DNA of 64,000 nucleotides from a plasmid. The stretch lies in the sequence record OW967251.1. One strand, given 5' to 3'. Shown piece after piece: positions 6,227-18,491 of this stretch. The first letter of the stretch is position 1, and each line of letters opens with the position of its first letter. Under the pieces are notes generated by a model that saw only the letters and a list, made by a program, of their open reading frames with translations, had not been told where the DNA came from and ran no database searches. A program made the position numbers and the translations under genes.

Positions 6227-6591
6227 GTAATTAATAAGTGTCATCAAAAGCATCCATCACCATTATCATAATTGGCCCTGATCAAATAAAATTTAACTTA
6301 TGTTGCGCGAGAATTCAGTTCATGAAAAAAATATCAGTATCATATTGTTTTTAATTATTATTTTCGTTCCCGGTTATATCCTATATCCAGGGTTCATGCC
6401 GCGCCGTATCCTGAGACTGGCTGAGAATACGAATGATCGTAACCACCGAATGTGATGACACAAAATAGATCATGTGCTGTTCCACCGGCAGCGAGCAGAT
6501 ATTGTCTCCCAGCTCCGCGCGATGCGTGCCTATGTCATGCATGGCCAGAACGTCAAACACCGCTGCTATACTGTTACCAACGGTGCAAAAC

Positions 6592-8316
6592 TGGGTCTTC
6601 CGCAACTTAGGTGGAGTTGTTTAAGCCAGAGGGCTCATGACTCGTCGTCGCAGTAACTCGAAGCCAGCTCGACCGTACATCTGCCGTTTCAGCATCTTCA
6701 GGCGGTTTACATGGCCTTCCACAACGCCATTACTCCATCTGCTGCTTATCGCTTCGTGTATTGCTGTTGCATCCGCTTCCATACCGGCCGCAACACGCTG
6801 AAGGTCAATGAGCCCACTTTGACTGACGTCAGAGAACCATTGATTTAACTGCGATTTATTCTTCGTTTTCAACATTCGATAGAAGTCGAGCGACAGCTGT
6901 TGCGCCATTTTCAGTTGCGGTTCTTTCTGGCACATCGATTCGATGAAGCGGGATGCATAGTTTTCTTCTCCTCTGATCATTCGCCAGGGCATTAACCAGC
7001 GGCTTACTCTGGATGCTGAGGGGAGTCGAACTGGGGCGATAACGGGACTGTTAACCTGCTTACGCCACTTAGCCACAGCATCCCTGACCGTCGTTTCGCT
7101 CCCGGTGAAGCCAGCATTTACCATCTCCCGCCATAGCTGCCCGGCATTATGGTTACCGTTTATCCGTTGTTCTTCCAGCCATTCCTGCCATGGTTCAAGT
7201 AACCCGGGTCTGGGTGGCTTAGTTGATATTTCAGGGAACGCTTTTGACTGTATCCACCGGCGAACCGTCACCCGGGACAGTCCGGTGATACGCGATATTT
7301 CTCTTATCCCACAACCCTTTTTATGAAGAGAGTCTACCTCAGCCCAGCGCTGATACCGTTTGTCACGTTGCTCTCGTTTAATACGTTCAGGGCGACGTAA
7401 CGTTGACGTTGGCACCAAAGACGCTTCAGCATTCTGTTTTTTGGGGGGATAACTCGGTGGCCACCAGTCGTATCAATGGCATGTGTCTGTACATCATGCG
7501 CTCCAGCGCATCACCAATATTCTTCAGCAGATGCCAGCGATCGGCCACCTGTATTGCCTGCGGTGCACCATCGCGAGCAGCTAACGCATAGATCCCCCCA
7601 CGATCGCGTGAGACGACCTGTATTTCTGGGTATTTTTTGAACCATGCCGCCAGAGTGCGTTGCTCCCGGCCTGGCAGTAACACCAGGGGGCGATGGGTAT
7701 CAAGATTTACGATCAGTGTGCCGTACCTGTGGCCCCGATGCCATGCCCACTCGTCAATACCAACATGCCTGGTCCGGTTCTCTGTTTGTTCCGGAGCTTG
7801 AACCACTCTGCGCAGTAAAGTATCCGCGCTGATCTGTATTCCTGAAGCTACTGCAGCTCGTCTCCCTGCTTCACCACCTGCGATAAGCCCCAGCTGATGC
7901 TGCAGATTTTTCAGCAATGCAGAAGACTGCTGCTGCGGGCCTGCAAAGGGAGCAAGCGATTCAGCAAAAATTTTACGTGAACAGGAAGGGTTACGACAGT
8001 ACCAGTGCCGGATGGCGAAGACTAACCAGAGGGCCTGGCCTGAGCATGGAAGATGCTGTACTCGCCTCCGCCGGCAACTATGAACAGAATGACTGTGCGT
8101 GAGGCACTCAGGACATGATGCCGTTTTACGTGTGGCGCGGAGATGGAGGGTTATTCCATCAGTACCAGTAATCTGTCGGCAGGTTTGCCACCCGCGCGGT
8201 AGCTGTAAAAGTCTCTTAAGTGAGGCCATTTTGTTATACATAACTTAAAACAGCTTAGATCCTTGTTAACTAAAAAGTTTCATCAATTTTTGTCCACCTA
8301 AGTTGCGGAAGACCCA
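6592..8316 (-). mobile_element. ISL3-family insertion sequence (about 1.7 kb) with a disrupted transposase
   Basis: Perfect 24-bp terminal inverted repeats TGGGTCTTCCGCAACTTAGGTGGA at 6592-6615 and, reverse-complemented, at 8293-8316. They enclose two consecutive minus-strand ORFs with ISL3-type transposase sequence. No matching target-site duplication was found. Confidence 0.75.
6621..8241 (-). pseudogene. ISL3-family transposase split into two ORFs (7426..8241 N-terminal part, 6621..7418 C-terminal part)
   Basis: Total about 536 aa, split between 7418 and 7426. N-terminal zinc-ribbon/HTH region and C-terminal DDE region typical of ISL3 transposases. Could instead be a sequencing error. Confidence 0.65.
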
Positions 8317-8812
8317 CTTTTTACCCGTTGTTGACAGCGGAGCACACCTTAACCCCGTGGTAAGCCTGATTTTTTATCTGATCGGGGCCTGCTCTTTCAG
8401 GGCAACCATGAATTACATCGTGGCTCAGTTGTTAGGGGCCGGCGCTGCTGCACTGTGCCTGAAGGCTGTCTTTGGCCACTCCCTGCTGGCCGGGGTGACC
8501 CGGGTCCATATGGGGGTATCACTGTACAATGCCTTTTTCATCGAAGGTGTCATGACTTTTATTCTGATTATGAGCATCCTAACGACCAGAAACCCCGCGA
8601 TTATCAGCATTGCTGTTTTTCTTGATGCTTTTATTGGCGGGCCGCTGACGGGGGCAAGCATGAACCCGGCCCGTAGCTTCGGGCCGGCATTGGCCATGGG
8701 ATACTGGGATAATCAGTGGCTGTACTGGGCCGCTCCGCTGTCTGGCGGGCTTGCAGCTGTTGCGTGCTGCCAGCTGTTTATGCCGCAACTGAAGTCACCC
8801 TCACCGGAATAA
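8317..8812 (+). pseudogene. MIP-family aquaglyceroporin (AqpS/GlpF-like) lacking its N-terminal ~55 residues
   Basis: Both MIP signature boxes are present (SGAHLNPVVS and SMNPARSFGPA), but the first box sits only ~15 aa from the ISL3 right IR. The ORF-track start lies inside the IS inverted repeat. No N-terminal continuation was found on the other side of the IS. Confidence 0.6.
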
Positions 8813-8828
8813 AGTCCCTTCCAGGACA

Positions 8829-8862
8829 GAATGCCTCTGATGAACAGAGGCATTCTTTTTTT
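8829..8862. terminator. bidirectional rho-independent terminator between the aquaporin fragment and the convergent GNAT gene
   Basis: GAATGCCTCTG/CAGAGGCATTC hairpin followed by T7. Confidence 0.45.
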
Positions 8863-9389
8863 CAGCAACCCACTGTCCGGCTACGCCTTTCCAGAATGAG
8901 AACATCTCTCCATTTTCCGTTCATTTCACCCACATTTTCCCGGCAGCCGACTTCCCTGAATCCCTGGCTGCGATGTAAAGCAACACTGGCCTGGTTTTCC
9001 GGAAAGATGCCAGCAAGTAGCGTCCAGAAACCCGCACTTTCCGAGCCCTTTATCAGCCCGGAGAGCAAAGCCCTGCCCGCGCCTTTTCCCTGAAAATGAG
9101 TACTGACATAAATGCTCAGCTCTGCGACACCGCGGTATGCATGCCGGCGGGAAAAAGGAGATAGCGCAGCCCATCCCACCACTCTGTTATCAACAGTGGC
9201 GACGTAGCGGCAGTCCTGAAGATGCCCTTCATTCCATTCCAGCCACTCAGGTGCTGCGGTCTGAAAGGTGGCGTTCCCTGTTGCAATTCCTTCCTGATAA
9301 ATTTCCCTGACTGCACACCAGTCCTCTTCGTGCATTTTTCTAATGATGATCTCTGCCATTTCTCTGTACCGTATGTTTGCTGTATTCAT
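8862..9389 (-). CDS. GNAT N-acetyltransferase, phosphinothricin-acetyltransferase/ArsN1-like
   Basis: 175 aa. PAT-family motifs (RHAYRGVAE, QGKGAGRALL, WRDVLILER) are shared with the second GNAT at 13616. Located in an ars context. Confidence 0.6.
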   Translation of the reverse strand: MNTANIRYREMAEIIIRKMHEEDWCAVREIYQEGIATGNATFQTAAPEWLEWNEGHLQDCRYVATVDNRVVGWAALSPFSRRHAYRGVAELSIYVSTHFQGKGAGRALLSGLIKGSESAGFWTLLAGIFPENQASVALHRSQGFREVGCRENVGEMNGKWRDVLILERRSRTVGC

Positions 9390-9690
9390 AGGCAGTCAGA
9401 AAACGAGCCTGCCTGGGCTTCCCGGCGGCGGGACATAATGCGCCCGTCAGCAAAGGATGAAGGTCATTTTATTTTTAGCGGGAATCGGTTTCTACTGTGA
9501 CGGATTCATATGCATTTTTCCATATATATTGTGACGTACCTCATTTCTGAGAGGTATAAACACCGATCATGTTTTCTCCATGCCGCGTAAGTGTAAGGCC
9601 CCGGAGATGGAGTCATATTATGGACGTGGTTGCGCTCACTATATATTTCTATTATTCTGGAAATATAGAAATAAAATTACGAGGAATGGG

Positions 9691-10017
9691 ATGGAGCTGA
9701 AAATCGCCGCGATGGTGCTGAAAGAACTTGGCCACACCACTCGTCTCGATATTTACAAAACACTCGTTAAGGCCGGACGTCAGGGACTGCCCGTGGGGGA
9801 ACTGCAGCAACATCTCGCCATTCCGGCCTCGACCCTGAGTCATCATCTTTCATCGCTGATATCCGTCTCACTGGTTCGCCAGGAAAGGCAGGGGAGAACA
9901 CTGTTCTGCCACGCCTGTTATGACAACCTTGCTGCATTGATTGCCTTTCTGACAGAAGAGTGCTGTGCAGACGAATATGCCCCGCCTGGTTTTATGTCAC
10001 CACCGGAGAAAAAATGA
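9691..10017 (+). CDS. arsR: ArsR/SmtB-family metalloregulator, atypical (no CVC in the DNA-binding helix; C-terminal Cys cluster)
   Basis: HTH ArsR fold ([13 protein letters not shown]...LSHHLSSL). Cysteines sit near the C-terminus (CHACYD, EECCADE) rather than in the ELCVCD position. RBS AGGAA lies before the ATG at 9691. The ORF-track start at 9580 is probably spurious. Confidence 0.7.
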
Positions 10018-10727
10018 TTGCTGAACTGAAAAATGTTGTTCCTGAGCTGTTTGATACAGGTCGCACCGGGGTCCGCCTGGGTGTAAAGACAGTTGACCAT
10101 CCTCCCCGGATCCTGATGTTGTACGGTTCCGTTCGAGAGCGGTCCTACAGCCGTCTGGCCACCGAAGAGGCTGCCCGGCTTCTTACCGCCATGGGTGCGG
10201 ATGTCCGCATCTTTAATCCTTCCGGTCTCCCTCTGCCGGATGATGCAGCGGATACGCATCCCAGGGTTATGGAACTTCGCGAAATGGTGCGCTGGTCTGA
10301 AGGGATGGTATGGTGCTCTCCTGAACGTCATGGTGCGATGACCGGCATTATGAAAGCCCAGATTGACTGGATACCACTATCAGAGGGCGCAGTACGCCCT
10401 TCTCAGGGAAAAACCCTGGCCGTCATGCAGGTCTGCGGAGGCTCCCAGTCTTTCAATGCGGTAAACCAGATGCGTATTCTTGGCCGCTGGATGCGAATGA
10501 TTACTATACCTAATCAATCCTCGGTAGCGAAAGCCTGGCAGGAGTTTGATGAAGACGGACGGATGAAACCATCCCCGTACTACGACCGTATTGTGGATGT
10601 AATGGAAGAGCTGATGAAGTTTACCCTGCTGACCCGGGAGTATGCAGCGTATCTCGTCGATCGCTACAGTGAACGTAAAGAGTCGGCAGAAGCACTTTCC
10701 CGGCGGGTGAATCAGAGCAAAATCTGA
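10014..10727 (+). CDS. arsH: NADPH-dependent FMN reductase ArsH (organoarsenical oxidase)
   Basis: Conserved [15 protein letters not shown] and [12 protein letters not shown] motifs of ArsH. ATGA overlap with the arsR stop. Confidence 0.85.
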
Positions 10728-10735
10728 GGGCTGGT

Positions 10736-11281
10736 ATGAGTGATGTAACGGCATTCAACAACTGCATGAGCGTGTTCTGGCAACAGCATGAAGCAGAGCT
10801 CTCCCGTTTTCTGGCATCAAGGACAGGCGATCGGGAGCAGGCAGCCGATCTGCTTCAGGAAGTCTTCCTGCGCGCCCGGGCCTGTGCAGACCGCTTCTGT
10901 GAAATGGAGAACCCGCGGGCCTGGCTGTACCGGACGGCGAGGAATCTGCTGACGGATGAGTACCGTGCCGCCAGAGACGTCGTGGTGCTGGAAGACGAGA
11001 TCCCGCTGCCTGACGCCTTCCATGAGGCGGTTTCAACGCTGGAGATTTGCCTGCCTGAAACCCTGCAGGCCTTACCTGACGAGGAAAGATGGCTGATAGA
11101 AGAGGCCGATCTGAACCGGCGTCCCCAGCAGCGCCTGGCCGACGAGCTGGGGATCACGCTGACGGCGTTTAAGTCGCGCCTGCTTCGCGCCCGGAAACAT
11201 CTGAAGAAGACGATGACGGAACTCTGCCAGGTGGAAGTGGATGATGCGTCTTCCGTCTGCTGCCATAAAAAAATGGATTAA
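10736..11281 (+). CDS. ECF (sigma-70 family, group IV) sigma factor with a short Cys-containing C-terminal tail
   Basis: Sigma region 2 (DLLQEVFLRA...WLYRTARNLLTDEYR) and region 4 (LPDEERWLIEEADLNRRPQQRLADELGITLTAFKSRLLRARKHL) are recognisable. C-terminal tail is ...CQVEVDDASSVCCHKKMD. No adjacent anti-sigma ORF. Confidence 0.7.
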   Translation: MSDVTAFNNCMSVFWQQHEAELSRFLASRTGDREQAADLLQEVFLRARACADRFCEMENPRAWLYRTARNLLTDEYRAARDVVVLEDEIPLPDAFHEAVSTLEICLPETLQALPDEERWLIEEADLNRRPQQRLADELGITLTAFKSRLLRARKHLKKTMTELCQVEVDDASSVCCHKKMD

Positions 11282-11356
11282 CCGCGCATCTTTTTCCCGC
11301 CTCACTCGTTTACCTCAGTGTAAAGCCCCATCATTCAACACTGAGGTAAACAGTCC

Positions 11357-11719
11357 ATGTCAAAAATTGAGATCTTTGAAGCCGCAGGCTGCTGTGCGAC
11401 CAGCAGCGTCGTGGTCAGCGATGAAGCCGTCAAATGGAACGCCAGCGCCGAATGGGCGAAAAAGCATGGTGTGAATATTCAGCGTTACAGCCTGGCAAAG
11501 AACCCGCAGCAGTTCCTGAATACGCCCGTCATCAGGGCCTTCCTGAACACGTCAGGAATGGAGTCCCTTCCCGCTACCCTGCTTGACGGCCAGCTGGTGA
11601 TGGCGGGCAAGCTCCCGTCCCGGGAAGATATCGCCCGCTGGGCCGGTATTTCCCTCACGCAGGACTGGAATGAAGACAGCACGCAGCCGCGCTGCTGCAG
11701 CATTCCCCGTATGCCTTAA
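11357..11719 (+). CDS. arsD: ArsD-like arsenic metallochaperone/repressor, divergent
   Basis: Aligns with the canonical ArsD at 17729 (FEAAGCCATSS vs FDPAMCCSTGVC; LPATLLDGQLVMAGKLPSREDIARW vs LPLLLLDGETVMAGRYPKRAELARW). The third Cys (Cys18) is missing. Confidence 0.65.
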   Translation: MSKIEIFEAAGCCATSSVVVSDEAVKWNASAEWAKKHGVNIQRYSLAKNPQQFLNTPVIRAFLNTSGMESLPATLLDGQLVMAGKLPSREDIARWAGISLTQDWNEDSTQPRCCSIPRMP

Positions 11720-11737
11720 TCCCGGAGGAGCTCAACA

Positions 11738-13494
11738 ATGACGATGCCATTTTTACAGAATATCCCCCCGTTTATCTTCTTCACCGGCAAAGGCGGCGTG
11801 GGGAAAACCTCTCTGGCCTGCGCGACGGCGGTATGGCTGGCTGACCAGGGCCGGAGAACGCTTCTGGTCAGTACCGATCCGGCCTCCAATGTCGGTCAGG
11901 TCTTCAGCCAGACTGTGGGCCACCGGATCACTGGTATCCGCACCGTGGAAAACCTTGCGGCAATGGAAGTTGACCCGATGGCGGCCGCGCAGGCTTACCG
12001 CGATCGCGTGCTCGATCCTGTTCGTGAACTGATGCCTGCCGATGTCATCAGCAACATTGAAGAACAGCTTTCCGGTTCATGTACCACGGAGATCGCGGCG
12101 TTTGATGAATTTACCGCGCTGCTGACCAGTCATGAACTGCGCGAAAAATATGATCATATCGTCTTTGATACTGCACCAACCGGACACACCATCCGTATGC
12201 TTGAGCTGCCGGGCGCCTGGAGCGGGTACCTCGATGCACATCCTGATGCTGCGGCGAACCTCGGCCCTCTGGTGGGGCTGGAGAAACAACAGGACCAGTA
12301 CGCTGACGCAGTGAAAGCCCTCTCTGATACGGCACTCACGCGACTGGTTCTGGTTGCCCGCGCACAGGCGTCGACCCTGAAAGAGGTCTCCCATACCCAC
12401 GAGGAGCTGTCGGCTATCGGTCTGCAGCATCAGCACCTTGCCATCAATGGCGTGCTGCCTCCCTTTGCCGGTGAACAGGATCCGCTGGCGCACAGTATTC
12501 TGGCGCGGGAGGAACGGGCCTTACGGGCCATGCCTGAAAACCTCGCGCATCTTCCCCGGTCGATGCTGTATCTGAAGCCTTTTAATCTGGTTGGTCTGGA
12601 AGCCCTGAGGGCGCTGTTTACAGAGAGCACACTTGTTCTGCCGGATCCGGGAGCCACGCTCACGACGGTCGATTTACCGGAGCTTGCCTCCCTGGTGGAG
12701 GACCTCAGCCGAGCGGGAAAAGGGCTGGTCATGACGATGGGAAAAGGGGGCGTGGGGAAAACCACGGTGGCGGCTGCGGTCGCGGTCTCGCTGGCCAGAC
12801 GCGGTCATAAAGTCCACCTGACCACCTCCGATCCGGCAGCCACCTGTCTTACACCCTGGATGGCTCGCTGCCAGGCCTTCAGGTCAGCCGTATCGATCCA
12901 AAAGCAGAGACTGAGCGCTATCGTCGCTTTGTGCTGGAAAATCAGGGAAAAGGTCTGGATGAAGAGGGACTGGCGGTACTGGAGGAAGATCTCCGTTCCC
13001 CCTGCACCGAAGAGATTGCCGTGTTTCAGGCATTCTCCCGGATCATCAAAGAGGCCAACGACCATTTTGTCATTATAGACACTGCGCCCACCGGGCATAC
13101 GCTGCTGTTGCTGGATGCAACCGGGGCCTATCACCGGGAAATGGTGCGCCAGATGGGGCAGGCTCACGATCACGTGATAACGCCAATGATGCAGCTGCAG
13201 GATCCGGAGAAGACCAGAGTCATTATCGTGACGCTTGCCGAAACCACGCCGGTACTGGAAGCGGCCGGGCTGCAGCAGGACTTACGCCGGGCCGGGATTG
13301 AACCCTGGGCGTGGGTCATCAATAACAGCCTCGCGGCCGCGAAGCCGTCCTCCCCGTTCCTGGTCACCCGTGCCCGTCGCGAACTGCCGCTGATCGACGA
13401 CGTTGCCGGGCATTATGCACAGCGCATTGCCCTGACGCCACTGCTGAAGGACGACCCGGTAGGCGTGGACCTGCTGGCTGAAATGGCGGGCTGA
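11738..13494 (+). pseudogene. arsA: arsenite-stimulated ATPase ArsA with a frameshift near 12841
   Basis: Two Walker A motifs (GKGGVGKTS, GKGGVGKTT) and DTAPTGHT signature motifs. Reading frame switches at GATCCGGCAGCCACCTG; one extra C would restore ...DPAAHLSYTLDGSL..., matching the intact ArsA at 15960. Split into ORFs 11738..13078 and 12931..13494. Confidence 0.75.
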
Positions 13495-13615
13495 CAGGTG
13501 GGGCGACGCCCTACCTCCACTTAAAACATTTCCTTATACAGGTCATAAGATGAAGCGCTTAATCTGCCGTCGCGAATTCCGGTAGTGTGTCAGTCAACGT
13601 CACAGGAGTCATACA

Positions 13616-14152
13616 ATGCACATTATCAATGCTGAAGAGCAGCACATTCCCGCCATACGGCGCATTTACGCCCATCATGTCCTGCACGGCACAGGCAGCT
13701 TCGAGACGGAACCCCCGGACACGCAGGAAATGCTTGCCCGGGTGAAAAATGTTCAGTCACGTGGATTTCCCTGGTATATCGCCCTGCAGGGGGAGACGGT
13801 CATCGGCTACTGTTATCTCTCCCGCTACCGCGAACGCCATGCCTACCGGTTTACGGTTGAAAATTCGGTGTACATCGATCCGGCTTATCAGCGGCAGGGG
13901 GGCGGAAAAGCCTTACTCGATCATGCCTTAACATGGGCCCGGTCTCAGGGATACCGCCAGATGATAGCGGTTGTGGGGGACAGTGCGAACGTCGCGTCTG
14001 TAGCGCTGCATCTTCGCGCCGGATTTACTGAAATCGGCACGCTGAAGGACATCGGTTTCAAGCATGGCCGCTGGCTGGACACGGTGTTGCTGCAGCGTCA
14101 GCTGGGAAAAGGGAGCTGTACGCTGCCGGACAGTCCGGTACCCGGACGCTGA
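13616..14152 (+). CDS. GNAT N-acetyltransferase, ArsN1/phosphinothricin-acetyltransferase-like
   Basis: 178 aa. PAT-family motifs (RHAYRFTVENSVYIDP, QRQGGGKALL) match the paralogue at 8862. Position at the end of the ars operon is typical for arsN1. Confidence 0.6.
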   Translation: MHIINAEEQHIPAIRRIYAHHVLHGTGSFETEPPDTQEMLARVKNVQSRGFPWYIALQGETVIGYCYLSRYRERHAYRFTVENSVYIDPAYQRQGGGKALLDHALTWARSQGYRQMIAVVGDSANVASVALHLRAGFTEIGTLKDIGFKHGRWLDTVLLQRQLGKGSCTLPDSPVPGR

Positions 14153-14159
14153 GGCAGGA

Positions 14160-14182
14160 GAAAGGGGGCATCGCCCCCTTTC
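14160..14182. terminator. bidirectional terminator between the two convergent ars clusters
   Basis: AAAGGGGGCATCGCCCCCTTTC perfect hairpin. Confidence 0.5.
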
Positions 14183-14184
14183 GG

Positions 14185-14610
14185 TTATTTCAGCCGTTTC
14201 CCTGCCTCATCTACTACTTTCTCGCCGTCTTCCTTAGCAAATGCGCCTTTTTGCGCATCCGGAAGAATATCCAGTACCACTTCGGAAGGGCGGCACAGAC
14301 GCGTTCCCAACGGTGTCACCACAATCGGACGGTTAATCAGGATCGGATGCTGAAGCATAAAATCGATTAACTGATCGTCAGTAAACTTATCTTCCTCAAG
14401 CCCCAGTTCTTCATAAGGCTCGACGTTTTTGCGCAGCAAAGCCCGGACTGAAATGCCCATATCTGCAATGAGTTTGACCAGCTCATCGCGTGACGGTGGA
14501 TTTTCAAGGTAATGAATAACGGTCGGTTCATTACCACTGTTGCGGATCATCTCCAGCGTATTACGCGACGTGCCGCAGGCCGGGTTGTGATAAATGGTGA
14601 TGTTGCTCAT
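14185..14610 (-). CDS. arsC: arsenate reductase ArsC (glutaredoxin-coupled, R773 type)
   Basis: MSNITIYHNPACGTSRNTL N-terminus with catalytic Cys12. 141 aa. Confidence 0.9.
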   Translation of the reverse strand: MSNITIYHNPACGTSRNTLEMIRNSGNEPTVIHYLENPPSRDELVKLIADMGISVRALLRKNVEPYEELGLEEDKFTDDQLIDFMLQHPILINRPIVVTPLGTRLCRPSEVVLDILPDAQKGAFAKEDGEKVVDEAGKRLK

Positions 14611-14622
14611 ATCAGTATCTCA

Positions 14623-15912
14623 TTACAAAGTGAAAGAGAGACGTAGCGCCAGCGCTGCCAGCGTTACAAACAGCACAGGCAGAGTCATGACGATCCCGGT
14701 GCGGAAATAGTATCCCCAGGTGATGGTCATATTCTTCTGTGAAAGGACATGCAGCCAGAGCAGCGTTGCCAGGCTACCAATAGGTGTAATTTTAGGTCCC
14801 AGATCGCAGCCAATCACGTTGGCGTAGATCATCGCTTCTTTGATAACGCCTGTTGCGGTGCTTCCATCGATAGAAAGAGCGCCAACCAGCACGGTAGGCA
14901 TGTTGTTCATGATGGAAGACAGGAAAGCCGTCAGGAAGCCAGTACCCAGCGTTGCAGCCCAGAGTCCTTTATCCGCAAGTACATTCAGCACACCTGAAAG
15001 GTATTCGGTTAGCCCGGCGTTGCGCAGACCGTAGACCACCAGGTACATCCCCAATGAGAAGATGACGATCTGCCATGGCGCACCGCGCAGCACTTTGCCA
15101 GTTTTAATGGCATGGCCTCGTTTAGCTACTGCAAACAGGATCACAGCTCCAACAGCCGCAATCGCGCTAACGGGAATACCAAGCGGCTCAAGGACAAAGA
15201 ACCCAACCAGCAGAAGTATTAAAACTATCCAGCCGGTTCTGAAGGTTGCCAGATCTTTAATCGCTTTTGCCGGTGCTTTCAGAAGAGCCAGGTCGTAAGT
15301 CGGTGGGATATCCTTGCGGAAGAACAAATGCAGCATAACCAACGTGGCAACAATGGCTGCAATATCCACCGGCACCATTACCGACGCATACTCGGTGAAG
15401 CCCAGTCCAAAGAAGTCTGCAGAAACGATGTTAACCAGGTTGGACACGATAAGCGGCAGGCTGGCTGTATCGGCAATAAACCCGGCAGCCATGACGAATG
15501 CCAGTGTCGTGCCTTTGCTGAACCCTAATGCCAGCAGCATGGCGATGACTATCGGCGTCAGAATAAGTGCCGCACCATCGTTGGCAAACAGTGCCGCCAC
15601 CGCTGCACCAAGCAGAACGATATACGTAAAGAGCAAACGGCCACGACCGTTACCCCAGCGCGAAACATGCAATGCCGCCCATTCGAAAAAGCCGGACTCA
15701 TCAAGCAGCAGGCTGATAATAATCACGGCAATAAAGGTCGCCGTCGCGTTCCAGACGATATTCCACACCACCGGAATATCGCCCACATGCACAACGCCAG
15801 ATATCAGAGCCAGTCCCGCGCCCAGCATTGCACTCCAGCCGATCCCTAATCCCTTTGGTTGCCAGATAACCAAAACAATGGTCAGGACAAAAATAGCGCC
15901 TGCCAGTAACAT
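14623..15912 (-). CDS. arsB: arsenite efflux permease ArsB
   Basis: 429 aa polytopic membrane protein with ArsB-family sequence. Sits between arsA and arsC. Confidence 0.9.
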
Positions 15913-15959
15913 AAAACCTCCTGACAGGGCGACTTTGTCGCCCTGTAGATGTCAAAAAA

Positions 15960-17711
15960 TTAACTCATCAACTCTCTGAGCTTTTCAATACCGGCGGGCT
16001 CTGACGCCAGCACCGGAACAAGCGCTATACGGTCAGCATGCTGATTCTTAACAGCCTCAATCTGAGGCAGTTCCTGTTGAGCACGCTGACAAAGCAACGG
16101 AGAACGCGTATCCGCAATGGAAAGGCTGTTATTGATAATCCAGCCCCACGGATGAATCCCCGCTCTTTCAAGGTCAGCCTGCAGGTTTGCCGCTTCCAGC
16201 ACCGGTGTGGTTTCAGGAAGCGTAACCAGCAGAACTTTGGTTCTATCCGGGTCCTGAAGCTGCATCATGGGGGTAGTAAAATGACCTTTACTCCCCATTT
16301 TTTTGGCAATCTCTCGGTGATAAGCCCCGGTCGCATCCAGCAACAGCAGCGTGTGTCCGGTAGGGGCGGTATCCATGACAACAAAGCGCTTACCCGCTTC
16401 ACGAATCACACGGGAGAAGGCCTGAAACACGGCAATTTCTTCAGTACAGGGAGAGCGTAAATCCTCTTCCAGTAACCGTTTCCCTGCTTCGTCCAGATCT
16501 CTTCCCTTCGTCTCAAGAACATGCTGGCGATAGCGTTCGGTTTCATCGTGAGGGTTGATGCGGCTGACCTGCAGGTTTTTGAGGCTGCCGTTCAGCGTTG
16601 TACTCAGGTGCGCAGCAGGATCAGAGGTCGTGAGATGCACGTCAAATCCCATGTCGGCCAGCCTGACGGCGATGGCGGCAGCCATCGTGGTTTTCCCTAC
16701 ACCACCTTTGCCCATCAGCATAATCAGGCCGTGTTCACTGCGAGCGATATCATCGACCAGGCCAGAGAGTGATAAGTTTTCAGGCGTGTACAGGATGTTC
16801 GTTACCGGGAGCGGTAATGCCTCAGAACGGGTAGCCAGCAGTCCCTTCAATGCTGAAACACCAACCATATTGACTGGCTGGAGTAACAGGGTATCTGTCG
16901 GTAGCTCAGATAAACCGGCAGGAAGATTTGCCAGTGCCTCCTGCTCACGTTGCCATATCGCCGCGGCCAGGGCGTCATGTTCAGCTTCGGCTTCAGGCAG
17001 CACACCATTAATCACCAGATATTGATTTTTCAGGCCAATCTCAGCCAGTTCCTCATGAGTGCGGGCGACTTCCTGCAGCGTAGAATTTTGCAGTCGTGCA
17101 ACCAGAACCAAGCGGGTACGTTCAGGGTCGGATAACGCCTCTACCGCATGAGCATACTGCTCACGCTGCTTTTCCAGCCCGGCCATCGGGCCAAGACAGG
17201 AGGCACCATCTGGATTGCTTTCAATAAAGCTACTCCAGGCACCAGGAAGCTGGAGAAGGCGAATCGTGTGGCCCGTCGGCGCGGTATCAAAAATGATGTG
17301 ATCGAAACGGGTCAGCAGGGAAGCGTCTGTCAATAAGCCGGTGAACTCATCAAACGCCGCAATCTCAGTGGTGCAGGCTCCTGAAAGCTGCTCGCTGATA
17401 CTGTTAACAACGTCATCAGGCAGAAGACCTTTGATAGGATCAACGATTCTGGCCCGATATTGCCGGGCGGCTTCCTGCGGGTCAATCTCCAGAGCAGAAA
17501 GCCCAGGAACTGCTGTCACAGGGCGAATCGTGTTACCGATAGCCAGATCGAATACCTGACCGACATTGGAGGCCGGGTCGGTACTGACCAGCAAAACCCG
17601 CTTACCCTGTTCGGCAAGGTGGATAGCCGTCGCGCAGGAAATGGAAGTTTTTCCTACACCACCCTTGCCAGTAAAAAACAGGTAAGGCGGGATATTCTGT
17701 AATAATTTCAT
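15960..17711 (-). CDS. arsA: arsenite-stimulated ATPase ArsA (intact)
   Basis: 583 aa from MKLLQNIPPY. Duplicated Walker A/DTAPTGHT halves and Cys113/Cys172/Cys422 equivalents. Confidence 0.9.
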   Translation of the reverse strand: MKLLQNIPPYLFFTGKGGVGKTSISCATAIHLAEQGKRVLLVSTDPASNVGQVFDLAIGNTIRPVTAVPGLSALEIDPQEAARQYRARIVDPIKGLLPDDVVNSISEQLSGACTTEIAAFDEFTGLLTDASLLTRFDHIIFDTAPTGHTIRLLQLPGAWSSFIESNPDGASCLGPMAGLEKQREQYAHAVEALSDPERTRLVLVARLQNSTLQEVARTHEELAEIGLKNQYLVINGVLPEAEAEHDALAAAIWQREQEALANLPAGLSELPTDTLLLQPVNMVGVSALKGLLATRSEALPLPVTNILYTPENLSLSGLVDDIARSEHGLIMLMGKGGVGKTTMAAAIAVRLADMGFDVHLTTSDPAAHLSTTLNGSLKNLQVSRINPHDETERYRQHVLETKGRDLDEAGKRLLEEDLRSPCTEEIAVFQAFSRVIREAGKRFVVMDTAPTGHTLLLLDATGAYHREIAKKMGSKGHFTTPMMQLQDPDRTKVLLVTLPETTPVLEAANLQADLERAGIHPWGWIINNSLSIADTRSPLLCQRAQQELPQIEAVKNQHADRIALVPVLASEPAGIEKLRELMS

Positions 17712-17728
17712 ATGTCCTCCTGACATAT

Positions 17729-18091
17729 TCAGCAACAGGAAGTATTACCACCACAGCAACTGGTGGGAGCTAACCCTACCTTCTCCAGCGGAATACCGAA
17801 CCAGCGAGCCAGCTCAGCGCGTTTTGGGTATCGCCCAGCCATCACCGTTTCGCCGTCCAGCAACAGCAGCGGAAGCCCTTCTGCGCCGGATGCATCGAGG
17901 AAGGCTTTCGCTTTCTCATTGTGAACAAAGCTCATGGGCTGCTGCGCCAGGTTGTAACGTTCAACCTGTACGCCACGTCCTTTCAGCCACTGCATATCAG
18001 CAGAAAAATCAACCAGAACCTGATCGACATCTGAACCACATACACCGGTACTGCAGCACATTGCCGGGTCAAACACCGTTAACGTCTTCAT
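17729..18091 (-). CDS. arsD: arsenic metallochaperone/repressor ArsD
   Basis: MKTLTVFDPAMCCSTGVCG ... C-terminal CCGGNTSCC. Canonical 120 aa ArsD. Confidence 0.9.
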   Translation of the reverse strand: MKTLTVFDPAMCCSTGVCGSDVDQVLVDFSADMQWLKGRGVQVERYNLAQQPMSFVHNEKAKAFLDASGAEGLPLLLLDGETVMAGRYPKRAELARWFGIPLEKVGLAPTSCCGGNTSCC

Positions 18092-18140
18092 TCTGAATAC
18101 CTCATACATTCGAAAAAACACATATGTTCAGGCAAATTTT

Positions 18141-18491
18141 TTAGATGCAAACAGCCTTACCGCTACCAGAGCAGTTTGCCGATGCCAGCTTACGGGCGAT
18201 GGCCTGTACGTCGTCCTGTTGGCTTAACCAGGCCTGCTCAATCACCTGAGCAGCCCAGGAAGGAATATGCGGGGATAAGCGATAATGAACCCATTTCCCC
18301 TGCTTGCGATCCAGCAATAGACCGCTTTCCCGGAGCATTGCCAGATGACGGGAGATCTTGGGCTGGGACTCATCCAGCGCCGTGCAGAAATCGCAGACGC
18401 ACAGTTCTCCCAGCTCCCTGAGCAGCAGGACAATACCCAGACGGGTTTCATCGGACAGGTTTTTGAAAAGCTTAAGGGCTGTAAGGGGCAT
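18141..18491 (-). CDS. arsR: ArsR repressor, R773 type
   Basis: MPLTALKLFKNLSDETRLGIVLLL...ELCVCDFCTAL arsenite-binding motif. Start chosen at MPLT rather than the upstream ATG of the ORF track. Confidence 0.85.
   Translation of the reverse strand: MPLTALKLFKNLSDETRLGIVLLLRELGELCVCDFCTALDESQPKISRHLAMLRESGLLLDRKQGKWVHYRLSPHIPSWAAQVIEQAWLSQQDDVQAIARKLASANCSGSGKAVCI

Follow-up and report, generated by a model that had tools for sequence, protein, structure and literature searches.

An accessory arsenic gene block with its own sigma factor gene, probably a partly decayed mosaic, next to a canonical arsRDABC operon

We analyzed a 64,000-nt stretch of the plasmid record OW967251.1 (the window), in which a second set of arsenic genes (8317-14152, the block) lies tail-to-tail with a canonical arsRDABC operon. 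An earlier reading of the DNA letters (the original prediction) had named the genes of this set, and all of them were found again in the open reading frame (ORF) listing and by profile searches: an ArsR-type repressor (ArsR2), ArsH, an extracytoplasmic function (ECF) sigma factor, an ArsD paralogue (ArsD2), a frameshifted ArsA (ArsA2), two acetyltransferases of the GNAT type (GNAT-1 and GNAT-2) and a truncated channel of the MIP family (Table 1). As had been predicted, no arsB, acr3 or arsP was found among the ORFs or by the profile searches within the block, and the ArsB of the canonical operon (14623-15912) is the only arsenite pump nearby. The view of a distinct, diverged second set also held. 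Compared to their counterparts in the canonical operon, ArsA1 and ArsD1, ArsA2 and ArsD2 show 61% and 41% identity, respectively, and since the identities are no higher than this, the two proteins are old paralogues and a recent duplication of arsDA was rejected. Overall, the segment is probably a mosaic, in which two older units were joined beside the classical arsRDABC and have partly decayed, rather than one operon. Two aspects had escaped the original prediction, namely the sigma factor as a putative regulatory core with its own conserved promoter, and the likely derivation of the channel gene and GNAT-1 from a biosynthetic cluster.

Table 1 Features in and around the block (positions in the window; bit scores with curated cut-offs in brackets)
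Feature	Position	Strand	Remarks
ISL3-family insertion sequence	~6576-8335	minus	Pfam DDE_Tnp_ISL3 and Zn_ribbon_ISL3 on both ORFs
MIP-family channel gene, 3' 72%	8336-8812	plus	MIP profile positions 56-221 of 224 only
Terminator-like hairpin	8828-8856	plus	between the convergent channel gene and GNAT-1
GNAT-1, PAT/ArsN1-superfamily N-acetyltransferase	8862-9359	minus	closest to ArsN1 family A
Candidate ArsR2 operator/promoter region	9643-9672	plus	ATATTTCTATTATTCTGGAAATATAGAAAT, with inverted repeat ATTTCTAT/ATAGAAAT
arsR2, ArsR/SmtB repressor of the AfArsR/SpArsR type	9691-10017	plus	NF033788 62 bits (55)
arsH, organoarsenical oxidase / NADPH-FMN reductase	10014-10727	plus	TIGR02690 401.5 bits (292)
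ECF sigma factor, SigZ/CorE2-like (ECF238-like)	10736-11281	plus	Sigma70_r2 and r4_2 domains only
Predicted ECF-type promoter	11288-11310	plus	ATCTTTTTCC-N9-CGTT, in front of arsD2
Hairpin	11308-11351	plus	arms TTTACCTCAGTGT (11309-11321) and ACACTGAGGTAAA (11338-11350)
arsD2, ArsD family	11357-11719	plus	PF06953 100 bits (27); NF033727 80.6 bits (below cut-off, 90)
arsA2 pseudogene, two-domain ArsA ATPase	11738-13494	plus	in two pieces; 1 nt lost between 12842 and 12843
GNAT-2, PAT/ArsN1-superfamily N-acetyltransferase	13616-14152	plus	closest to ArsN1 family B
Hairpin terminator, GC-rich	14160-14182		strong; common to the convergent GNAT-2 and arsC, which it separates
arsRDABC, canonical operon	14185-18491	minus	tail-to-tail with the block; usual neighbour across L002 and L005-L019

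The sigma factor gene is flanked by arsH and arsD2, and no anti-sigma gene adjoins it. Its product scores best on the SigZ models, at 138.3 bits on TIGR02959 (below the cut-off of 168.65). Conserved cysteines are located at positions 10, 55, 105, 164, 175 and 176, with a C-terminal motif CQVxxD-x4-VCCH, and C164, C175 and C176 fall in the last 18 residues. In the family alignment C164 is invariant, at least 90% of the sequences have C105, and C55 and the C175-C176 pair (VCCH) are retained in nearly all relatives down to ~38% identity. These properties resemble those of CorE and CorE2 from Myxococcus xanthus, SigZ from Bacillus subtilis and group ECF44, which has been merged into ECF238. Members of ECF238, which comprises SigZ and CorE2, carry a short Cys-rich C-terminal extension and have no anti-sigma factor (PMC7826278, PMC8999054), and CorE2 is activated by metal binding (PMC7826278, PMC8999054, PMC4937300). 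The sigma factor of the window is likewise a minimal sigma2-sigma4 protein, and it shares with them the short Cys-bearing extension, a linker cysteine and a position beside metal(loid) transport genes. In contrast to them, its tail holds three cysteines instead of six, it remains below the SigZ equivalog cut-off, and factors of its type adjoin arsenic genes (ArsD/ArsA, an ArsP_1 permease or a thioredoxin-like ArsE-family protein). The CxC motif of the sigma2-sigma4 linker, which defines CorE-like ECF44 (PMC4937300), is absent, the linker containing only the single Cys105 (EICLPE), and the designation CorE-like in the strict sense was therefore rejected.

The 75-nt gap between the sigma factor gene and arsD2 contains a block that is conserved even in Cedecea. 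Comparison with distant loci resolved this block into a -35/-10-like pair with fixed spacing, [AG]TCYTTTYYY-N9-CGTY, for which a single site was found in each of 26 sequences out of the 36 scanned (573 kb). Since the motif carries ~22 bits, ~0.27 chance matches are expected, and every match is located directly upstream of an arsD2, ArsP_1 or Trx_3 gene near a sigma factor homologue. The motif was also present at two loci that were inspected after its definition. In the first, a metagenomic variant (L024:40-1969) whose sigma factor is 59% identical, arsR overlaps the sigma factor gene, an unrelated gene on the opposite strand (DUF6630) follows, and only then come the motif and arsD; the promoter thus travels with arsD and not with the sigma factor stop codon. 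In the second, from Niveibacterium (L029:5001-8650), a GNAT-1-like gene, the sigma factor gene and an EamA gene follow one another in this order, with a Trx_3 gene nearby, and the target is on the other strand. Further relatives of ~40% identity, a value that also applies to Niveibacterium, are present in three more genera. The sigma factor gene is followed by genes for an ArsP_1 permease and a small thioredoxin-like protein in Mangrovitalea (L020:7001-8938; MTH895/ArsE family) and in Vibrio salinus (L022:7001-8989), and in Rhodoferax (L021:4530-8532) it is preceded by ArsP_1, MBL and Trx_3 genes and followed by an overlapping CDF transporter gene. Together, these loci look like parts of a wider cysteine-tailed ECF regulon for the export of thiophilic metal(loid)s. 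The putative pairing of the sigma factor with the predicted promoter in front of arsD2 is well supported on bioinformatic grounds. A look-alike upstream of the sigma factor gene in Cedecea is wrongly spaced, and autoregulation through the same motif was rejected there. A full-text literature search combining sigma-factor and ars-gene terms yielded no paper in which ars regulation includes a sigma factor; in one pESI genomics paper, the gene is just listed beside arsH, arsD and arsA.

At 11308-11351, a 14-pair stem (-23.2 kcal/mol, z-score -5.85) pairs an anti-Shine-Dalgarno sequence, CCTC (11313-11316), with the Shine-Dalgarno sequence GAGG (11344-11347) of arsD2. Across the aligned sequences 92% of the cells are paired, and an analogous pairing of different sequence is found in Mangrovitalea and Vibrio. 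The anti-Shine-Dalgarno sequence sits between the -10 element and the expected transcription start, predicted ~6-9 nt downstream of CGTT, so that it should be missing from RNAs initiated by the sigma factor but present in those that read through from the arsR2 promoter. When 8200-14300 was compared with Rfam (E up to 1), there were two chance-level matches only and none at the hairpin, and a sigma-70 promoter scan returned nothing above the shuffled expectation. Published uninduced RNA-seq values for the identical plasmid pBIC1a are 21 for arsR2, 39 for arsH and 47 for the sigma factor gene, followed by 9 for arsD2, 4 and 4 for the two arsA2 pieces and 12 for GNAT-2 (PMC6286996). The drop after the sigma factor gene fits a separate, silent downstream unit.

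The same region can be read in another way. The sigma factor might have a general role in the response to thiol, redox or metal stress and be located in the island only incidentally, with arsD2 and arsA2 transcribed by read-through from the ArsR2-controlled promoter and the intergenic element acting as an operator or an RNA-stability hairpin. The gaps are indeed short (8 nt between arsH and the sigma factor gene, and the 75 nt in front of arsD2), no terminator follows the sigma factor gene, and at the DNA level the palindrome has no mismatch. Moreover, Cu, Cd or Zn are the signals to which members of ECF238 respond (PMC7826278, PMC8999054), and the overlapping gene in Rhodoferax encodes a CDF transporter. 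However, the spacing of the -35/-10-like motif is exact even in lineages where the remaining intergenic sequence is unrelated, the motif stays with the target gene where this is separated from the sigma factor gene (L021, L024 and L029), and the palindrome arms vary by lineage yet always include the ribosome-binding site. We regard a purely incidental position of the sigma factor as quite unlikely.

The regulatory part upstream of the sigma factor gene consists of arsR2 and arsH. ArsR2 contains four cysteines in two pairs, C73 and C76 (FCHACYD), of which C73 is conserved, and C91 and C92 (EECC). Its best solved-structure match is AfArsR (6j05), and C91/C92 align with C95/C96 of that protein, which bears out the predicted AfArsR-type C-terminal site. 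An equivalent of Cys102 of AfArsR was not found in the alignment, no cysteine following the CC pair of ArsR2. SpArsR from Shewanella putrefaciens, which also lacks this residue, responds to methylarsenite (MAs(III)) only (PMC11868830). ArsR2 thus shares with SpArsR and AfArsR the C-terminal vicinal cysteine pair and the linkage to arsH, and with SpArsR the absence of the third ligand; it differs from both in the additional C73 and C76, either of which could serve as a third ligand. Located 20-50 nt upstream of arsR2, an AT-rich element with an inverted repeat (9643-9672) is kept in the window and in L002, L003, L004, L007, L010, L013, L024 and L032 (Pantoea) while the flanks diverge. Judged from this pattern, the element is likely the operator of ArsR2. 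In the Salmonella Infantis pESI-type plasmid (L004), the operator-like element occurs twice upstream of arsR2.

The loss of Cys18 from ArsD2 and the frameshift in ArsA2, both noticed earlier, were confirmed by alignments. ArsD2 keeps Cys12 and Cys13 and has a C-terminal CC pair, while the region of Cys18 is deleted, a pattern that is invariant in 11 orthologues including that of the window. ArsA2 has two P-loop halves and conserved Cys113 and Cys422, with Asn instead of Cys at position 172 in all 11 orthologues. In the window, arsA2 has lost an A (GCAGCCA-CCTG compared to GCAGCCAACCTG in the intact relatives L002, L005 and L006). The resulting pieces match positions 2-361 and 392-564 of TIGR04291 with 575 and 280 bits (cut-off 650), whereas the intact orthologue of L005 (585 aa) reaches 909 bits. 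Because 950 of 1070 plasmid records (~89%) share the exact window allele of a 61-nt stretch around the deletion, the frameshift is no sequencing error but has become fixed in the main lineage of Klebsiella. Canonical ArsA and ArsD use three-coordinate sites formed by Cys113/Cys172/Cys422 and Cys12/Cys13/Cys18, respectively (PMC12415280). Compared to arsRDABC operons of the R773/R46 type, the proteins thus belong to the same families, but each lacks one ligand; in addition, no pump gene is part of the transcription unit, and arsD2-arsA2 is preceded by an ECF sigma factor gene and an ECF-type promoter instead of an ArsR-controlled sigma-70 promoter. The joint loss of one ligand in ArsR2, ArsD2 and ArsA2, together with the presence of ArsH, is the best argument for a role in the response to organoarsenicals, although it is no more than a hint at such a specificity. 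The theme of organoarsenical defence in the original prediction accordingly stays plausible.

The sigma factor was used to scan one genome per species, and the matching loci were mapped by tblastn. The order arsR2-arsH-sigma-arsD2-arsA2(-GNAT-2), tail-to-tail with arsC-arsB-arsA-arsD-arsR, recurred in Hafnia, Enterobacter, Citrobacter, Kluyvera, Cedecea davisae and one Klebsiella chromosome, as well as fully intact in the chromosome of an E. coli river isolate. The core module is nearly always convergent with the arsB operon, and intact versions of the block exist elsewhere at 80-99% identity. Among complete E. coli genomes, 60 of 5426 carry sigma-arsD2-arsA2. Two Cedecea species have only sigma-arsD2-arsA2, adjoining crcB and arsRBC; since arsRBC alone lies beside it, the sigma-linked pair is their only ArsD/ArsA. 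At the Cedecea locus L015, crcB (12817-13194; fluoride channel family) is located between arsA2 and arsC, within the arsenic locus. An E. cloacae plasmid carries the six genes between insertion sequence elements with an arsC fragment only and no arsB. The Salmonella plasmid L004 bears a divergent permease of the ArsP_1 family (PF03773, 184 bits) with a TPFCSCS motif and a Cys/Ser-rich loop; this gene and, downstream of arsA2, a ModE-like winged-helix gene (6354-7391; 11474-11842) replace GNAT-2 and arsRDABC. A functional link of ArsA and ArsP has been proposed earlier from gene associations. Between diverged copies, the ratio of nonsynonymous to synonymous substitutions (dN/dS) is 0.05 for arsH, 0.06 for arsD2, 0.11 for the sigma factor gene and 0.11 for GNAT-1, and with arsA2 and GNAT-2 included all values range from 0.05 to 0.14. 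The core module is therefore under purifying selection in many Enterobacterales.

The unit at the left end of the block probably has a different history. The channel gene abuts the insertion sequence, its homology beginning at 8336 (the RefSeq coding sequence of 151 aa starts at 8357), and since its orthologue in a K. michiganensis plasmid (L006) is complete at 220 aa, the first 62 residues have been lost in the window, in line with the predicted loss of the 5' end at the ISL3 element. The designation as an AqpS/GlpF-like aquaglyceroporin, in contrast, was not upheld. The full-length orthologue scores 95 bits on AQP4, 62 on GlpF and 50 on AqpZ, with AQP0 and NIP also above GlpF and AqpZ, and its subfamily score of 133.6 bits is below the MIP cut-off of 171. 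It has NPV and NPA boxes and, by alignment to AQP4, Gly in place of His in the selectivity filter. We rejected the GlpF/AqpS label also in view of the missing residues 1-62 of the window copy; the channel is an atypical MIP, for which the name aquaglyceroporin is not established. The ISL3 transposase is divided into two ORFs (7426-8241 and 6621-7418), and long imperfect terminal inverted repeats can be read directly from the sequence. No matching target-site duplication was found. The element itself is degenerate, and its insertion was probably accompanied by a deletion. To its left lies a truncated RelE/ParE toxin gene (6381-6560) of 180 nt, compared to 297 nt in Leclercia (L002), with no antitoxin.

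On plasmids of Pantoea agglomerans, a GNAT 76% identical to GNAT-1 is convergent with a MIP gene, whose product is 85% identical to the full-length channel of L006 (for the channel gene of the window, the amino acid identity to this last gene of the cluster is 80-85%). This MIP gene is the last of an operon (L032:9001-16837, plasmid NZ_CP134747.1) in the order arsL, small ORF, ATP-grasp ligase, MFS transporter, arsM_2, CobW-like GTPase, MIP, with arsR upstream and both arsRBC and arsR2-arsH alongside. ArsL and ArsM_2 score 641 bits on NF040542 (cut-off 450) and 341 bits on NF040539 (cut-off 240), respectively. This cluster is found on six Pantoea plasmids, and in L006 the 3' end of the GTPase gene remains upstream of the channel gene. 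Like arsQML, the arsinothricin biosynthetic cluster of Burkholderia gladioli GSRB05, the Pantoea cluster encodes ArsL and an ArsM-type methyltransferase, both above curated cut-offs. It differs from arsQML by an MFS transporter in place of the GntP-type ArsQ and by the additional ATP-grasp ligase, CobW-like GTPase, MIP channel and convergent acetyltransferase. It is apparently an undescribed arsinothricin-type gene cluster, and our literature search found no paper linking Pantoea with arsinothricin; in view of the ATP-grasp ligase, its product may be a peptide derivative comparable to bialaphos. Since the channel fragment and GNAT-1 are both homologous to the end of the Pantoea arsL-arsM cluster, we consider it reasonably likely that they are the stump of an arsinothricin-type biosynthetic cluster, of which the window retains the last one and a half genes only. 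GNAT-1 would then probably be the self-resistance gene of the lost cluster.

The whole block is 100% identical in ~1000 plasmid records, mostly conjugative IncFIB/IncFII plasmids of Klebsiella pneumoniae with a sil/pco/ars island, and hence is no chance assembly. The same uniformity, taken as a sign of recent spread instead of selection, would agree with a hitch-hiking remnant without present function that is kept since the plasmid lineage is young and clonal. Such decaying cargo might also be expected to show the arsA2 frameshift, the truncated channel gene, the degenerate ISL3 element and the low uninduced expression of pBIC1a. The versions of the block with intact arsA2 (L002, L005, L006 and L033), full channel gene (L006) or ArsP_1 permease (L004) likewise identify the window copy as a decayed one, an outcome that the original prediction had named as speaking against its own interpretation. 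Furthermore, the GNAT-2 of K. pneumoniae pKP062-1 (L005:10967-11395) has been cut to 142 aa, and that of the K. michiganensis plasmid (L006:11282-11706) is disrupted; arsA2 is intact in both, so that island copies decay at different genes. Nevertheless, six ORFs are intact in the window, their family is under strong purifying selection, the module is preserved in the chromosomes of several genera, and the promoter and operator elements of the window are unaltered. An island without any function is thus rather improbable.

The acetyltransferases had been assigned to the ArsN1 class, which was borne out in part. With the RefSeq start GNAT-1 comprises 165 aa, the originally proposed start at 9389 belonging to a longer ORF call. 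Its identity to GNAT-2 is 32%. Both have matches to Acetyltransf_1, _3, _4 and _7, and structures of the phosphinothricin acetyltransferase (PAT) family are their best solved matches, in the case of GNAT-2 the entry 9igk (177 bits), which was deposited as a phosphinothricin acetyltransferase. ArsN1 is the best-scoring family for each, with 147.6 bits for GNAT-1 and 90 for GNAT-2 on ArsN1a (cut-off 170), and 88.6 and 147.3 bits, respectively, on ArsN1b (cut-off 210), compared to 81.3 and 110.4 bits on the PAT model NF040502 (cut-off 300). Relatives of both proteins score 131-147 bits on the ArsN1 models. As all scores are below the cut-offs, equivalog-level membership of ArsN1 or PAT was rejected for both. 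Nevertheless, both qualify under the operational definition of ArsN1 as a PAT-related GNAT in an ars operon (PMC6465285), being located in an ars cluster, as is the GNAT-1 homologue beside arsL/arsM and arsRBC in Pantoea. PpArsN1 (phoN1), the characterized enzyme from the ars1 operon of Pseudomonas putida, is also a PAT-related GNAT at the end of an ars operon, and by analogy the likely shared chemistry is the N-acetylation of glutamate analogues that inhibit glutamine synthetase. The similarity to it is low, with 50 bits for GNAT-1 and 82 for GNAT-2. GNAT-2 follows arsA2 in L002, L003, L012, L019 and L033 as well.

These data also bear on the original prediction as a whole, that is, a working stand-alone defence against organoarsenicals and arsinothricin, in which ArsH oxidizes, two ArsN1 enzymes acetylate, and ArsD and ArsA feed the ArsB of the neighbouring operon. 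ArsH is bona fide, both GNATs have ArsN1 as their best family, and the borrowing of ArsB is in line with the conserved synteny, the convergence with the arsB operon and the gene arrangement in Cedecea. However, ArsA2 of the window is frameshifted and thus unable to drive any pump, so that a hand-off from ArsD/ArsA to ArsB is impossible there. GNAT-1 has a genuine link to arsinothricin through its Pantoea homologue. The picture differs for GNAT-2, whose nearest relatives outside the island (60-70% identical, one of them 69%) are stand-alone, housekeeping-like genes on the chromosomes of Citrobacter and Pectobacterium, where their surroundings have no connection to arsenic. This interpretation also leaves out the sigma factor with its promoter and the derivation of the channel gene and GNAT-1 from a biosynthetic cluster; as a whole, we consider it unlikely.

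The explanation we favour, and consider probable, is a partly decayed accessory arsenic island that is controlled by the sigma factor and composed of two units. Unit 1 (8336-9359) would be the tail of an arsinothricin-type biosynthetic cluster, with the channel gene cut by the ISL3 element and the convergent GNAT-1, which most likely shielded the producer through N-acetylation of a glutamate-analogue antibiotic. Unit 2 (9643-14152) would be a conserved two-tier regulatory module. In this module, ArsR2, with a two-cysteine site like that of the methylarsenite-selective SpArsR, would repress arsR2-arsH-sigma via the conserved operator. An arsenical would lift the repression, leading to synthesis of ArsH, which oxidizes trivalent organoarsenicals, and of the sigma factor. 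The latter, with its cysteine-rich tail and no anti-sigma partner, would guide the RNA polymerase to the predicted promoter at 11288-11310 and thereby allow transcription of arsD2-arsA2-GNAT-2. On read-through RNA, the hairpin would hide the ribosome-binding site of arsD2, while RNA initiated by the sigma factor would start inside the 5' arm and hence be translatable. ArsD2 and ArsA2 would pass a two-coordinate (organo)arsenical to a membrane partner, either the convergent ArsB or, in L004, the ArsP_1-family permease. In the window, the frameshift has inactivated the ArsA2 arm and the channel is incomplete, which leaves ArsR2, ArsH, the sigma factor, ArsD2 and the two acetyltransferases as the only proteins that could still act.

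More tentatively, the sigma factor itself might be a direct arsenical sensor of the ECF238 type, with As(III) or a trivalent organoarsenical bound by C164, C175 and C176 in concert with C55 and C105. Combined with the two-cysteine ArsD2 and ArsA2, this would constitute a separately regulated, organoarsenical-specific, ATP-driven branch that plugs into ArsB or ArsP-type permeases and whose translation is gated by the hairpin, with escape restricted to RNA initiated by the sigma factor. We regard this as possible but doubtful.

Several points weigh against a sigma-controlled, organoarsenical-directed island. Because arsA2 is a pseudogene in ~89% of the copies, the ATPase arm is dispensable for the success of the plasmid. 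Loss of Cys172 or Cys18 may merely lower the affinity for As(III) without a change in specificity, and an ArsD without Cys18 is also found in ~11 other lineages among the best 150 representatives; the idea that ArsD2-type proteins are unique in this loss was rejected on that account. In a sigma factor without the CxC linker, the cysteines could bind structural zinc or sense redox conditions instead of arsenic. Covariation in the hairpin is weak within Enterobacterales, with one compensatory pair, and the palindrome could be a protein operator instead of an RNA hairpin. The expression values of pBIC1a were obtained in a heterologous host under uninduced conditions. Further relatives of GNAT-1 (~62% identical) are located in non-arsenic contexts, and the sub-threshold ArsN1 scores of both acetyltransferases and the chromosomal relatives of GNAT-2 count in the same direction.

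The constituent proteins all come from known superfamilies, and the island has been sequenced countless times already: it is present on ~1000 sequenced Klebsiella resistance plasmids, on Salmonella Infantis pESI-type plasmids and in E. coli, where it has been annotated gene by gene only. What appears to be new is an ars module that has two-cysteine versions of ArsR, ArsD and ArsA and a putative tier of control by a sigma factor, fused to the probable vestige of an antibiotic cluster. If our explanation is correct, arsenic resistance would gain a third control layer, beyond the ArsR repressors and ArsD, in the form of an ECF sigma factor with a cysteine tail and a promoter of its own, and the two-cysteine ArsR/ArsD/ArsA would point to a way in which ArsD and ArsA may have been adapted to methylated or aromatic arsenicals, compounds of relevance to poultry feed additives and herbicides. 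It would also tie enterobacterial plasmids to arsinothricin biosynthesis and self-resistance. Since acetyltransferases of the ArsN1-like kind are common in clinical Klebsiella already, this link would be of importance for any development of arsinothricin into a drug. Should the sigma factor indeed be a direct arsenical sensor, it would be the first arsenic switch at the level of a sigma factor, acting together with the first ArsDA variant tuned to two-coordinate arsenicals.

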